A stretch of 54,335 nucleotides of DNA, from the IMG/VR virus record IMGVR_UViG_3300048895_000023, positions 1-54,335 of that record; one strand, written 5' to 3'. Positions 50,757 to 53,995 of this stretch are shown here, piece by piece. Origin of the DNA: a virus (lineage: Duplodnaviria > Caudoviricetes). Below the pieces are notes generated by a model, which saw only the letters and a list, made by a program, of their open reading frames with translations, searched no databases and had not been told where the DNA came from. Position 1 is the stretch's first letter. Each line of letters begins with the position of its first letter. The translations under genes and the position numbers were made by a program.

Positions 50757-51303
50757 GCATGCCTTCATGGCTCCTAGTTCTCCTTATTGGGTAAACTACG
50801 ATGAAGAGAAGATGGATAAGTCCTACTTCACTTCCCAGGCAGCACGTCTTGGAGACAGGAAGCACCATCTCGCCGCAGAGCTTATTTCTTTGCGCGTTAA
50901 GCTTCCACCGATCCAAAAAACCATGAACCTGTATGTCAATGACGCTATAGGTTACAAGATGACACCCGAACAACCTCTGTACTATTCAGAGAACTGTTTC
51001 GGAACTGCAGATGCTATTTCTTTCAGACAGGACTCTAAGACCGGCCGTTGGATGCTCCGCATTCACGATCTTAAGACTGGCGCCACTCGTACGACCATGA
51101 AGCAGCTCGAAGTCTATGCTGTGCTGTTCTGCTACGAGTACAAAGTTAACATGGCAGACATCGACATTGAGCTTCGTATCTATAAGAGCGACGCTGTTGA
51201 GATTCTTGAGCCAGATCTTGATGATCTACTCCACATCCTCGACAAGATTACCACCTATGACAAGCGAATCGAAATGATTAAGAAGGAGACCTACGGTGAC
51301 TGA
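50719..51303 (+). CDS. PD-(D/E)XK exonuclease (Cas4/DUF2800-like)
   Basis: HAFMAPS...G...H...EQ...FGTADAI...IHDLKTG...QL.VYA. Confidence 0.78.
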   Translation: MMRWNAHYDLQGKHAFMAPSSPYWVNYDEEKMDKSYFTSQAARLGDRKHHLAAELISLRVKLPPIQKTMNLYVNDAIGYKMTPEQPLYYSENCFGTADAISFRQDSKTGRWMLRIHDLKTGATRTTMKQLEVYAVLFCYEYKVNMADIDIELRIYKSDAVEILEPDLDDLLHILDKITTYDKRIEMIKKETYGD

Positions 51304-53995
51304 CGACGACACCCTAGCTCACTATGGTACCAAACGTCATTCCGGCCGCTACGAGTGGGGTTCGGGTAAAGACCCATACCAGAGTGGCATTCATTTTCTT
51401 GCAGCGTACGACGAACTAAAGAAGAAGGGTCTTACTGAGACTGAGATTTCCGAAGGCCTCGGATTTGAGTCTACTGCAGACCTTCGAGCTCGTCGTACTA
51501 TCTCCTCTACGGATATTCGTGCAGACAAGCAACGTCGTTTAAACACGTTGCTTCAATCCGGCATGTCCATGAGCGCGGCAACCCGTGAGATGGGTCTTTC
51601 AGAGTCCTCAGGTAGAGCTCTAATGGATCCCATCGTTCAGGCTCGAGCCAACCGCATCGGAGTAACGGCAAACCTTCTAAAGGATTACGTTGCTAAGTAC
51701 GACTATGTCGACATCGGTAAGGGCGTTTCGAATCACATGAACATCAGCCCCAACCAATTGGCAACCGCCTTGGCGATGCTTAAGGAACAGGGCTACACGG
51801 TTCAGTACACGAACGTGCTTCAGGTAGGCACCGGATTGAACACGAGCTTGAAGGTTCTTACTAAAGACACAGTTGATGGTAAGGAGCTCTGGGCTAATCG
51901 TGACAAAATTCGTGCAATTAGTGATCACATCGATCCTGATACCGGAGACATCGTCTCTCTTAAGCCGCCGGTACCCATCAGCGCCAAGCGCGTTGGTGTT
52001 ATCTATGGCCCTGATGGTGGTGCTGATGCTGATGGCGTTATGTATATTCGTCCTGGTGTTCCCGACGTATCTCTTGGTAACAAGCAGTATGCTCAGGTCC
52101 GTGTGGCAGTCGGCGACGACGGCAATGGGAAACCAACACACTACCTAAAGGGTATGGCGATGTACAGCGATGACCTTCCAAAGGGTGTAGACATCATGTT
52201 CAACACGAACAAGTCAAACACCGGCAACAAATTGGATGCGTTGAAGTCTATTAAGGACGACGCTGACCCGCTCAACCCATTTGGTTCGATGACTGATCAA
52301 AGATCATACGTTGACAAGAACGGAGAGACTAAGCAGTCTGTCCTGAACATCGTCAATGAAGAGGGCGACTGGTACACTTGGTCAAACAAGTTCTCATCTC
52401 AGTTCCTATCCAAGCAAACTCCGCAACTCGCAAAGGAACAGCTTACGCTGACCACCAATGCTAAGAAACAGGAGCTCCAGGACATCGTTGGGCTTACTAA
52501 CCCGGCTGTCAAGAGGAAGCTTCTTAAGAGTTTCGCAGATGGTGCTGATTCATCAGCCGTTAAACTTCAAGCGACGGGTCTTCCCCGTACTGCAACCCAC
52601 GTAATCCTTCCGATTAATAGTCTTAAGGACAACGAGGTCTACGCTCCGAAGTACAACACTGGTGAAACGGTAGTTCTTGTTCGTCATCCTCATGGTGGTA
52701 TCTTTGAGATCCCCCAGCTTGTTGTTAACAACAGCAATAAGGAAGCACAGCGATCCATTAACGGCGCTAAGGATGCAATTGGAATCAATGCTAACGTAGC
52801 GAAGCGTCTTTCAGGCGCAGACTTCGATGGTGATACGGTTCTAGTTATTCCTAATGGAACGGGAAAGGTAAAAACATCCCCCGCCCTCCTAGCGTTGAAG
52901 GATTTCAGTCCGACTGACGAATATAAACTGCCAGATGACAGTCTTAAGGGTCTTCGTGGGTTTAAGAATCCTGAGAAAATGAAACAAGCCTTGATGGGCG
53001 ACATTTCTAACTTGATCACGGATATGACAATCAAGGGTGCTCATCCTAACGAGATTGCTCGTGCAGTTAAGCATTCCATGGTTGTTATCGACGCAGAAAA
53101 GCACAACCTTGATTATAAGGCATCTGCTATTGACCAGGATATAAAAGAGTTGAAAAAGAAATATCAAGGTGGAGCTGCCAAGGGCGCCTCAACCCTTATT
53201 TCTAGATCGACTTCTGACATCCGCATCGAAAAGCAGAAGCCTAGGTCCGCTAAAGAAGGTGGACCTATTGATCGTGAGACAGGCGAGCTTAAATTCGTTC
53301 GAGATTCCAAGAAAGAGTATGTCAATGCTGAGGGCGTCACTGTCATGCCTCGTCAGCTCACTACTAAGGGTGCAGTTACTAACGATGCCCATACCCTAGT
53401 GTCTGACAATGGCGGTACTGTAATTGAACGCATCTATGCGGATCATGCTAATGGCCTTAAGGCCCTAGCTAATGAGGCACGTAAAGAATTGTTCAACATC
53501 AAGGACATCCCTCAGAACAAGTCGGCTAAAGAGACCTATAAGACCGAGATCGCGTCCCTTAATGCCAAGCTTAACATGGCTGAAAAGAACGCCCCCAAGG
53601 AAAGACAGGCCCAGTTGTTAGCCGGGGCCATTGTAAAGGCCAAGCTAGAATCAAACCCCGGCCTTGAAAAAACGGACCTTAAAAAGATCAACGGTCTGGC
53701 CCTCACCGAGGCACGCATTAGGGTAGGCGCACAGAAAGCTAAGATTGAGATCACCGATGAAGAATGGAACGCCATACAATCAGGTGGCATCTCGGCTAGC
53801 AAGCTAGCTAAGATCATTGACAATGCTAAGATAGAAGATGTTAGAGCTAGGGCCACACCTAGAACTAAGCCCTCCATCTCAAGTTCTAACCTGGCCCTCG
53901 CAGAAAGCATGATGGCCCAAGGTTACACTGTAGCGCAGATTAGTGATCGTCTTGGCATCAGTACTACTACACTATACAATGCTCTTGATCAGTGA
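51296..53995 (+). CDS. putative single-chain two-barrel RNA polymerase (YonO/cellular RdRP-like) with HTH domains
   Basis: LSGADFDGDTVLV (DFDGD at 52820-52834), AQVR...YLKGM, VLVRHP, MGDISNL, HSMVVIDAEK in RdRP-like order; HTH-like segments near both termini. Confidence 0.75.
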   Translation: MTDDDTLAHYGTKRHSGRYEWGSGKDPYQSGIHFLAAYDELKKKGLTETEISEGLGFESTADLRARRTISSTDIRADKQRRLNTLLQSGMSMSAATREMGLSESSGRALMDPIVQARANRIGVTANLLKDYVAKYDYVDIGKGVSNHMNISPNQLATALAMLKEQGYTVQYTNVLQVGTGLNTSLKVLTKDTVDGKELWANRDKIRAISDHIDPDTGDIVSLKPPVPISAKRVGVIYGPDGGADADGVMYIRPGVPDVSLGNKQYAQVRVAVGDDGNGKPTHYLKGMAMYSDDLPKGVDIMFNTNKSNTGNKLDALKSIKDDADPLNPFGSMTDQRSYVDKNGETKQSVLNIVNEEGDWYTWSNKFSSQFLSKQTPQLAKEQLTLTTNAKKQELQDIVGLTNPAVKRKLLKSFADGADSSAVKLQATGLPRTATHVILPINSLKDNEVYAPKYNTGETVVLVRHPHGGIFEIPQLVVNNSNKEAQRSINGAKDAIGINANVAKRLSGADFDGDTVLVIPNGTGKVKTSPALLALKDFSPTDEYKLPDDSLKGLRGFKNPEKMKQALMGDISNLITDMTIKGAHPNEIARAVKHSMVVIDAEKHNLDYKASAIDQDIKELKKKYQGGAAKGASTLISRSTSDIRIEKQKPRSAKEGGPIDRETGELKFVRDSKKEYVNAEGVTVMPRQLTTKGAVTNDAHTLVSDNGGTVIERIYADHANGLKALANEARKELFNIKDIPQNKSAKETYKTEIASLNAKLNMAEKNAPKERQAQLLAGAIVKAKLESNPGLEKTDLKKINGLALTEARIRVGAQKAKIEITDEEWNAIQSGGISASKLAKIIDNAKIEDVRARATPRTKPSISSSNLALAESMMAQGYTVAQISDRLGISTTTLYNALDQ

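Follow-up and report, generated by a model that had tools for sequence, protein, structure and literature searches.

Near the right end of the tailed-phage record IMGVR_UViG_3300048895_000023, which probably represents a soil phage, one open reading frame (ORF) on the + strand (51296-53995) encodes an 899-residue protein that is almost certainly a two-barrel nucleotide polymerase with an intact active site. This assignment is based on the structural matches of a model of the protein and on eight active-site residues that are invariant among its relatives. The enzyme is very probably a DNA-dependent transcriptase, and on balance we favor the reading that it is a single-chain RNA polymerase with two double-psi barrels that uses a promoter of its own and is carried in the virion. 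The window analyzed here is the whole IMG/VR virus record of 54,335 bases, which is classed as linear and about 95% complete. All of its sizeable genes lie on the + strand, and a tRNA scan across the 54,335 bases found no tRNA.

The ORF runs for 899 open codons from a GTG start to a TGA stop, and a strong Shine-Dalgarno (SD) sequence, GAAGGAGA, lies 6 nt before the GTG. The gene call on the record (P0002, 810 residues) starts 89 codons later; because it removes a conserved leader and the first helix-turn-helix (HTH) unit, the 899-residue ORF is the better gene call. A preliminary description of this DNA, made from the letters alone, had chosen the longer ORF, and every motif it quoted is found in the translation where it had been placed. 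For the window itself, the correct annotation and the corrected gene start are the main yield. The parts of the gene are listed here, with domain and barrel boundaries that represent our reading of the secondary structure of the model.

51296-53995, + strand, including the stop: gene for the 899-residue polymerase (ORF, translation, profile phrog_4291, AlphaFold model and Foldseek)
51296-51376, + strand: conserved leader DDTLAHYGTKRHSGRYEWGSG, residues 1-27, predicted to be disordered and DUF7211-like, beginning with MTDDDTLAHYG (residues 1-11)
51377-51700, + strand: N-terminal helical module with two HTH-like units, residues 28-135, containing the HTH-like segments GLTETEISEGLG (residues 45-56) and GMSMSAATREMGLSESS (residues 89-105)
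51704-51895, + strand: winged-helix-like alpha/beta domain, residues 137-200
51992-52360, + strand: first (beta-like) barrel region, beta-rich at about residues 233-355, with D246, Q267, R269, K285 and G286 and the motifs AQVR (residues 266-269) and KGM (residues 285-287)
52592-52852, + strand: second (beta-prime-like) barrel region, strands at about residues 433-519, with R463-x-P465 and the catalytic loop, and the motifs VLVRHP (residues 460-465) and LSGADFDGD (residues 505-513)
52820-52834, + strand: DFDGD metal-binding loop, residues 509-513
Residues 559-810: helical and hairpin region in the model; the motifs MGDISNL (residues 567-573) and HSMVVIDAEK (residues 593-602) lie here
53756-53989, + strand: C-terminal pair of three-helix bundles, the last being an HTH, residues 821-898, containing the HTH-like segment GYTVAQISDRLGISTTTLYNAL (residues 876-897)

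The catalytic core

The AlphaFold (AF2) model was built on an alignment of 65 relatives, the same sequences in which invariance was counted; motif frequencies refer to 270 fetched homologs, designated by P numbers. The model has a mean predicted local distance difference test score (pLDDT) of 86.7 and a predicted template modeling score (pTM) of 0.78. Its best Foldseek match in the PDB is QDE-1 (2j7n_A, E 3.4e-9), followed by gp62 of Thermus phage P74-26 (8f5m_A, E 8.5e-8, template modeling (TM) score by target 0.45), maize RDR2 (E 1.3e-6) and Arabidopsis RDR2 (E 2.8e-5), and then by Rpb1 and bacterial beta-prime chains at E ~1e-2. The Foldseek probability is 1.00 for 2j7n_A, 8f5m_A, 7w82 and 7eu1_M, in a whole-chain comparison in which the global TM is low (~0.3). 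Matches in BFVD are to a phage 'RNA dependent RNA polymerase' (E 1.4e-8) and to a protein of Thermus phage P23-45 (E 7.1e-8). By fold the chain falls in the two-barrel superfamily, and the assignment to the QDE-1, RDR and YonO class that had been drawn from motif order is supported by the comparison with QDE-1. A PDB sequence search with the protein gave no match.

Section 8 of Ruprich-Robert and Thuriaux (2010; PMC2919709) gives eight residues common to two-barrel polymerases, which in QDE-1 are D709, R738, K743, R962, P964, D1007, D1009 and D1011. Their counterparts here, D246, R269, K285, R463, P465, D509, D511 and D513, are all invariant (65/65), the first three being mapped onto D709, R738 and K743 by motif order and spacing. 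The distance from the arginine to the first aspartate of the loop is 46 residues (R463 to D509), compared with 45 in QDE-1 (R962 to D1007), and Q267, G286 and G512 are likewise invariant in 65/65. The wider set agrees: D.DGD is found in all 270 homologs, DFDGD in 267, R[YH]P in 266 and Q[VI]R...KG in 259. The polymerase motifs are not a product of chance, and the expectation that DFDGD would be conserved in homologs is borne out. QDE-1 and plant RDR2, the best and third-best structural matches, thus share with the phage enzyme the same eight residues in the same order with similar spacing, at ~12% identity. They differ in being eukaryotic enzymes of RNA silencing without HTH modules.

Distribution of the family

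The protein matches phrog_4291 ('RNA-dependent RNA polymerase') at 1174.5 bits, with residues 2-898 aligned to positions 7-906 of a 909-position profile, and it has the same architecture of leader, N-terminal HTHs, core and C-terminal HTH; it is a full-length member of PHROG 4291. By tblastn, 250 annotated phage records match, of which 249 cover at least 80% of the query, all at less than 60% identity. Their hosts are mostly Arthrobacter (95), Gordonia (55), Streptomyces (54) and Lactococcus (13), with smaller counts for phages of Curtobacterium, Microbacterium, Rhodococcus and Faecalibacterium and for human-associated viromes. In nearly all of the matching phage records listed, the gene lies at the far right genome end. 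An exhaustive protein search found 2107 clusters (50% identity) at E <= 0.001. The closest metagenome proteins are 71% identical to the polymerase and the best Arthrobacter phage proteins 52.5%; a DNA-level search of annotated phages gave no match. The family is very common (843 clusters at E <= 1e-30 and 250 records of cultured phages, mostly SEA-PHAGES isolates), yet most of those records carry the label 'helix-turn-helix DNA-binding domain protein', the misannotation that the preliminary description foresaw. RefSeq versions of several records are labeled 'RNA-dependent RNA polymerase'.

The best-documented relative is orf75 of Lactococcus phage 1706, which carries the leader and DFDGD and aligns by BLASTP at 36% identity over 996 columns (E 1e-171). 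In comparison with orf75 and with the homologs from Arthrobacter, Gordonia, Streptomyces, Microbacterium, Curtobacterium, Rhodococcus and Faecalibacterium phages, the window protein shows full-length homology, with the same leader, HTHs and DFDGD, a position at the right genome end, one small ORF after the gene and a promoter-like element of the same type; the differences are only of degree. Ruprich-Robert and Thuriaux (2010; PMC2919709), in the text available to us, place the phage 1706 protein and YonO among five 'YonO-like' families. Koert et al. (2021; bioRxiv 10.1101/842583) describe the family by an HHpred match to PF05183 (95.68%), HTHs at both ends and a DxDGD loop, suggest that it is an RNA polymerase and treat it as a signature gene of a phage group. 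Both the family and its HTH-flanked architecture are therefore already in print and the window protein is another member; the novelty implied by the preliminary description was overstated. What is new here are four leads: a promoter core that crosses host phyla, a leader resembling a tag, the label 'structural protein' that the 1706 record gives to orf75, and a fusion to a portal domain. Combined, these leads turn the notion of a small, injected and address-labeled transcriptase into one that can be tested in easily grown phages.

DNA-binding modules

DNA-binding domains are found within the catalytic chain. The C-terminal HTH is the only one in the polymerase above Pfam thresholds: residues 858-898 match HTH_23 (26.5 bits, cut-off 24.6) and HTH_7 (23.9 bits, cut-off 23.8), and phrog_664 and phrog_309 match residues 776-898. 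In many homologs, sigma-70 region 4 families are among the precomputed matches. At the other end of the chain, the helices assigned by DSSP (32-43/48-55/60-87 and 92-98/103-109) form the two HTH-like units, for which the profile weakly matches HTHs of resolvase, transposase and NarL type (E 0.16-0.4). Homolog P0132 has an HTH_23 match (E 2.5e-11) at its residues 250-285, which correspond approximately to residues 86-121 of the window polymerase. The alpha/beta domain that follows comprises a helix (152-164) and strands (168-175 and 182-189). Folded in isolation (pLDDT 84.8), the N-terminal module has its best fold matches in winged helices of the TFIIE/TFE type, at E ~0.1 and root-mean-square deviations of 2.5-2.8 Å over 67-68 columns. 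Of the built-in HTHs that had been proposed, the C-terminal one is significant in Pfam, and the N-terminal HTH and winged helix are reasonable assignments on weaker evidence. A 'sigma-like' or 'TFE-like' label for the N-terminal module was rejected, there being no fold match at E <= 0.001.

A promoter-like element that accompanies the enzyme

A TATAAT-containing element recurs in the window on one strand only. Its full pattern (in-register consensus ttttTCGCGnGAAAaaCAnGnCnTATAATGAACCCC) is present in 14 forward and 0 reverse copies and is absent from 100 shuffled sequences; the pattern was derived from the window, so the shuffle test is not independent of it, and other phages supply the independent test. 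Conservation extends past TATAAT into GAACCCC, and an SD sequence follows about 13 nt after TATAAT. The copies lie upstream of groups of genes as follows.

24420-28115, + strand: twelve copies, each before a small gene (cassette array)
33965-33989, + strand: one copy at the head of a long replication block
50366-50390, + strand: one copy, TCGCAGGAAAAACATGTGTTATAAT, upstream of the VRR-Nuc, Cas4-type exonuclease and polymerase block

The element recurs with the enzyme in other phages, and the promoter pattern claimed earlier is real. Arthrobacter phage Circum has the same element architecture at the syntenic equivalent of 50366. On the forward strand, the full pattern has 9 copies in Circum, 11 in Gordonia phage Petito, 2 in Streptomyces phage Kardashian and none in Lactococcus phage P118, with no reverse copy in these phages; the reversed control pattern gives 0 in all four. 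Among the 11 polymerase-bearing IMG/VR loci (designated by L numbers), six have the full motif, in the forward orientation only (L006, L007, L008, L012, L013 and L016, with identical matches in L008 and L016). A pattern-free word count in phage 1706 found 10 forward and 0 reverse copies of CTATAGTAG. Aligned in register, it gives CAC-N8-CA-N5-TATAGT, which keeps the architecture of the window element and differs by one base; the CRC variant of the pattern has 7 forward and 0 reverse copies in that phage. The core WWACA-N5-TATART is found forward 10 times each in the window, Circum, Petito and P118 and 12 times in 1706, with 0 on the reverse strand, and its reversed control gives 0-1 per strand.

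No -35-like hexamer lies at 16-18 nt from the sites. A sigma-70 scan of the window found 5 matches where 6.2 are expected, thus no enrichment, and did not list the site at 50366. Its conservation between actinophages and phages of Firmicutes, its strict co-orientation with the genes and its presence in the genome-scale records examined suggest, most simply, that the element is a promoter for the shared enzyme. From the co-occurrence of enzyme and motif, we infer that the polymerase probably reads it.

Two further observations concern arrays and repeats. The cassette array (24420-28400, + strand) consists of 12 units, each with a hairpin and T-run, the promoter-like element, GAACCCC, an SD sequence and a tiny ORF; the junctions are nearly identical, the ORFs differ, and the array looks like an early host-takeover array. 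In phage 1706, the 450-nt gap before orf75 (51634-52081, or 3553-4000 of locus L034) holds 3-4 direct repeats (CTATCACGAAAAAAC...TTCGGGA...) that do not form the full promoter pattern, a hint that the polymerase gene is under separate control in that lineage.

The leader and DUF7211 proteins

The first 27 residues are conserved to a degree comparable to the active site, with H9, G11, S16, G17, R18 and G22 invariant (65/65), in a segment that the model places with low confidence (pLDDT ~50). A strict leader pattern (H-x-G, 2-5 residues, SGR[YF]-x-[WYF]G) is found in 234 of the 270 homologs. The 36 misses are N-terminally truncated calls (P0013, P0015 and P0258), long fusions (P0165, P0199 and P0271), P0132 and 29 variants in which the loop is longer or shorter, the SGRY...WG block is substituted, or the histidine is replaced by Q or W.

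A similar motif, of the HFGVLGMKWG type, marks three small proteins of the window that belong to family DUF7211, with 35.9-40.9 bits against a cut-off of 27 bits; the family is characterized by HYGxxGMxWG at the N-terminus.

2932-3363, + strand: DUF7211 small protein (143 residues), just upstream of the large terminase gene (PF23847, E 5.9e-10)
5149-5655 and 5667-6164, + strand: two DUF7211 small proteins in the interval between terminase and portal (PF23847, E 4.8e-9 and 1.3e-10)

A regular expression for the shared tag, applied to the six-frame translation of the window, has 4 hits, namely the polymerase and the three DUF7211 proteins, compared with 0.015 in shuffled sequences. The likeness between leader and DUF7211 is one of motif level only. 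DUF7211 ORFs occur in the packaging arm of all five phages compared (3 in the window, 3 in Circum, 3 in Kardashian, 4 above cut-off in Petito and 2 in P118) and in none of 14 control bacterial genomes, and tagged ORFs are present in 9 of 13 portal-bearing IMG/VR loci. The C-terminal parts of the DUF7211 proteins vary widely in length and family, as would be expected of a common address label on varied cargo. The literature searched contained no DUF7211 papers. A tblastn search of a DUF7211 protein against annotated phages returned only 'hypothetical protein' labels, and the protein atlas is similar (hypothetical, DUF7211, viruses).

Several features stand beside these genes. Upstream of the first DUF7211 gene are a connector-type gene at 2465-2920 (+ strand; Phage_connect_2, E 1.8e-32; phrog_4247, 'virion structural protein') and a small protein with a weak LysM-like end at 1956-2381 (+ strand). 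No small terminase subunit was recognized in the window, and the DUF7211 gene at 2932 occupies the place expected for it. Two polymerase homologs, P0100 and P0130, have an extension of ~165 residues in front of the leader. In P0130 the extension matches PF13563 (2',5' RNA ligase / 2H phosphoesterase superfamily) at E 3.2e-6, and the same family is precomputed on P0100; P0132 has no PF13563 hit. A fused RNA-repair or anti-defense activity is possible in these extended relatives, judging by their domain content.

Possible virion carriage

Carriage of the polymerase in the virion is, in our estimate, evenly poised. It is made plausible by the tag-like leader, a label in the phage 1706 record, a fusion to a portal protein and adjacency to the packaging genes. 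The first three of these lend indirect support to the virion-cargo leader proposed in the preliminary description. In the 1706 record (GenBank EU081845.1), orf75 is labeled 'structural protein', and the same label is given to orf7, a 462-residue protein encoded upstream of the terminase gene with the tag HRGVIGMRWG. Where functions are predicted, this record writes 'putative ...', and small ORFs dispersed outside the structural block have the plain label too; as a database annotation, it looks like a report of detection in particles. A paper on Faecalibacterium phages has no proteomics on phage Oengus.

In the fusion protein P0165 (1789 residues), a portal domain (PF04860, E 2.9e-29; phrog_12) and the polymerase core are connected by a long, charged linker, and the leader, the first HTHs and the C-terminal HTH are missing. 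The linker and C-terminal core recur in P0199 and P0271, and each of the three proteins is known from one contig. A related-locus search with P0165 among viral contigs returned ordinary polymerase loci only, and a search with P0271 among metagenome contigs returned none. A separate protein, P0272 (2020 residues, on one 14-kb contig), joins polymerase residues 4-543 to sequence like the tape measure of the window (16577-20800). It was set aside as evidence as a possible assembly chimera; the alternative is a tape-measure fusion reminiscent of P23-45 gp96.

Two contigs that run through the genome end carry, on one strand, genes for helicase, VRR-Nuc, Cas4, polymerase, the small ORF, HNH, connector, a DUF7211 protein, terminase and portal. 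From this gene order, the polymerase gene would stand at the head of the late block in replicating DNA. The upstream neighbors are VRR-Nuc and Cas4 nucleases in the actinophage type, whereas a lysin gene precedes the polymerase gene in Lactococcus phages, and in 1706 a holin gene follows it across the genome end.

We tentatively suggest, as an idea somewhat short of an even chance, that ordinary 40-60-kb siphoviruses of Actinobacteria and Firmicutes carry and inject a 100-kDa polymerase, loaded by a DUF7211-like L-x-H-Y-G...WG docking peptide, and that the same tag also marks a variable assortment of small cargo proteins whose genes surround those for terminase and portal.

Proposed mechanism and alternatives

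The scheme that we propose builds on the fold, the invariant residues, the C-terminal HTH, the co-occurrence of enzyme and motif and the conservation of the leader, all of which are observed. The two barrels would bring D246, R269 and K285 together with R463, P465 and D509-x-D511-x-D513 around a catalytic magnesium ion, as in QDE-1 and the cellular RNA polymerases. No sigma factor would be needed, as the chain's own modules, the two HTH-like units and winged helix at the N-terminus and the HTH pair at the C-terminus, would bind DNA and place the enzyme on a promoter of the form C[G/A]C-N8-CA-N5-TATA[A/G]T followed by GAACCCC. From copies of this promoter the enzyme would transcribe the early small-gene array and the replication block, as well as the nuclease-polymerase block to which its own gene belongs. 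For the disordered leader (L-x-H-Y-G...SGRYxWGSG), the likeliest role is that of a docking peptide akin to the DUF7211 tag. Such a peptide would take a few copies of the enzyme into the procapsid, to enter the cell with the DNA and begin transcription without the host enzyme. New enzyme would then be made from its own promoter, and on concatemers transcription could run on into the packaging and head genes. That the polymerase gene itself lies behind the same type of promoter fits an enzyme that is present from the start.

A number of observations weigh against this scheme. The PF05183 RdRP (RNA-dependent RNA polymerase) family scores 13.6 bits against a cut-off of 23.8 (E 0.028, residues 500-616), and the family profile finds only HTHs in the PDB, apart from weak touches on the catalytic loops of 8h2n/8h2m (E ~0.2) and 7s00_d (E 1.6). 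In hhalign, the 65-sequence profile matches YonO with a probability of 0.8%, YonO being a single sequence for which a profile-to-profile comparison could still succeed. No bench work or enzyme assay on the family was found in the literature searched. On the promoter side, Kardashian has only two full-pattern copies and P118 none, and five of the 11 IMG/VR loci are without the full motif, four of them with less than 3 kb upstream of the gene and L011 with 9.6 kb. TATAAT and TATAGT also follow the -10 consensus of housekeeping sigma factors. The TATAAT block also suits host sigma-A, so that the sites could be read by the host polymerase, either on its own or helped by a phage factor. As for the leader, a search of polymerase residues 1-45 or 1-200 with the PF23847 DUF7211 hidden Markov model (HMM) gave no hit at E <= 10, and the only partial hit is that of the Petito polymerase N-terminus (13.1 bits, E 0.007, HMM positions 5-13). 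The internal position of the leader in P0100 and P0130 misfits a strictly N-terminal signal. Regarding packaging, the 'structural protein' label is a database annotation given also to orf62 and orf71, small ORFs of a non-structural region; on orf75 it could reflect carry-over of abundant proteins in the virion preparation. The portal fusion P0165 is an observation from a single contig.

The main rival to a packaged polymerase, which we consider rather unlikely, is the same enzyme made early by the host RNA polymerase from the first-entering DNA, as in the T7 scheme, and then taking over transcription; its leader would bind a host or phage partner in the cytoplasm or help initiation. This scheme would suit the placement of the gene, in nearly all complete records listed, at the right end of the genome, which lambda-like siphoviruses eject first, and the perfect TATAAT in the promoter of the polymerase block, which host sigma-A might use. 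P74-26 gp62, presumably the counterpart of the non-virion polymerase gp64 of P23-45, is among the closest folds, and the leader that is internal in two relatives and missed by the DUF7211 HMM would also be easier to accommodate. Against it stand the label on 1706 orf75, the fusion in P0165, a tag-like leader common to proteins of the packaging module, and the lack of a sigma-70-type -35 element at the proper distance from the sites.

A different task for the polymerase is improbable. On such a reading, the enzyme would copy RNA or single-stranded DNA, as QDE-1 does, to make regulatory, priming or anti-defense RNAs, and the host would read the promoters. The closest folds are indeed the RNA-silencing polymerases QDE-1 and RDR2, RefSeq and PHROGs use the label 'RNA-dependent RNA polymerase', and the neighboring genes encode recombination nucleases; Ruprich-Robert and Thuriaux (PMC2919709), in the text available to us, left the role open and suggested RNA-mediated regulation. 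Set against this are a double-stranded DNA phage, HTH and winged-helix DNA-binding modules at both ends of the chain, a separate primase-polymerase encoded at 38413-42252, a dedicated motif that co-varies with the enzyme across host phyla, and YonO, which is called a DNA-dependent RNA polymerase in a title (PMC5467207). Most remote of all, with a likelihood close to negligible, is the reading that the polymerase-like core is dead and that the protein regulates by binding DNA or is purely structural. It would agree with the HTH label on most of the 250 records and with the C-terminal HTH being the only one to pass Pfam thresholds; against it, eight catalytic-site residues are invariant across relatives down to ~41% identity. 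The invariant site together with the DNA-binding modules makes both a dead core and a non-messenger role unlikely.

Returning to the packaged polymerase that we favor, its consequences would be considerable. It would be the smallest known self-targeting virion transcriptase, with a promoter core, TTACA-N5-TATAAT, unchanged across two host phyla. DUF7211 would become a general capsid-cargo address label in Gram-positive siphophages; if the leader is a capsid-loading tag, the family gains a function and foreign proteins might be brought into phage heads by means of it. A transcriptase of fewer than 900 residues that works as one chain, without sigma and on specific promoters, would also be a tractable minimal model of two-barrel transcription initiation and a candidate orthogonal expression tool for Gram-positive hosts, and it would account for the way in which these phages express their early genes.

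Comparison with other phage polymerases

YonO of phage SPbeta, a DNA-dependent RNA polymerase according to the title of Forrest et al. (2017; PMC5467207), resembles the window enzyme as a single-chain phage protein of the two-barrel class with a DxDGD loop (839 residues compared with 899). The relation to YonO that had been proposed stands for the fold class and not for sequence kinship, on which the hhalign probability of 0.8% bears; kinship is at the level of fold class only. The yonO gene lies mid-genome in a 134-kb temperate phage, on the same strand as its own terminase and portal genes and ~6 kb from them, whereas the window polymerase gene lies at the right end.

The polymerases of Thermus phages P23-45 and P74-26 are small phage two-barrel enzymes that read phage-specific promoters; the text of Chaban et al. 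(2024; PMC10770324) available to us describes P23-45 gp64 as the non-virion polymerase and the tape-measure-fused gp96 as the virion enzyme. P74-26 gp62 is the second-best fold match to the window polymerase (E 8.5e-8), and the catalytic loop of gp96 (8h2n/8h2m) is weakly touched by the family profile; these proteins have no sequence-level kinship with the window polymerase. In Thermus gp96 there is already an example of a two-barrel enzyme that is carried in the virion and attached to a structural protein.

Virion-packaged polymerases also include the vRNAP of phage phiKZ. Two larger virion enzymes would be functional analogs if the packaging reading is right. One is gp66 of crAss-like phage phi14:2, a two-barrel virion enzyme far larger than 899 residues that starts early transcription. 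The other is N4 gp50, which the available part of the source (PMC5512222) describes as a T7-type polymerase module in a multidomain protein of ~3,500 residues, carried in the virion and starting early transcription. Unlike both, the window polymerase has 899 residues and is encoded in an ordinary 54-kb genome of siphovirus type.

Neighboring genes and other features of the window

The gene order of the window is given here, with the immediate neighbors of the polymerase gene.

Start of the window, + strand: HNH endonuclease, connector, DUF7211 protein, large terminase, two DUF7211 proteins, portal
Middle, + strand: protease-capsid fusion, tail genes and 1407-residue tape measure, small-gene array, 1279-residue replicase
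End, + strand: single-strand annealing protein, helicase, VRR-Nuc, Cas4-type exonuclease, 899-residue ORF, 98-residue ORF
50448-50756, + strand: VRR-Nuc endonuclease (phrog_93 and phrog_3953 matches for the VRR-Nuc and Cas4 pair)
50719-51303, + strand: Cas4-type exonuclease, with VRR-Nuc a conserved upstream neighbor of the polymerase
53992-54288, + strand: 98-residue acidic ORF (phrog_4303), whose GTG start overlaps the polymerase stop

The order VRR-Nuc, Cas4, polymerase is the same in Circum, Kardashian, Petito, L011 and L012. In each of the relatives examined (Circum, Kardashian, Petito, P118 and 1706), the polymerase gene is likewise followed by a small ORF. The 98-residue ORF of the window matches no Pfam family and is 46% identical to 1706 orf76; its product is a possible partner or accessory subunit of the polymerase.

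The 1279-residue protein (phrog_4210; 38413-42252, + strand) is 40% identical over ~1200 residues to 1706 orf55; the available text of a 2025 paper in Nucleic Acids Research (NAR; PMC12205980) describes 1706 GP55 as a 'four-in-one' helicase / AEP-primase / PolB replicase. A G/C-rich hairpin without a T-run (GGGGGGGTC ... GACCCCCCC; 54296-54327, + strand) lies past the last gene, before the record ends, and may act as a terminator or belong to the genome end.

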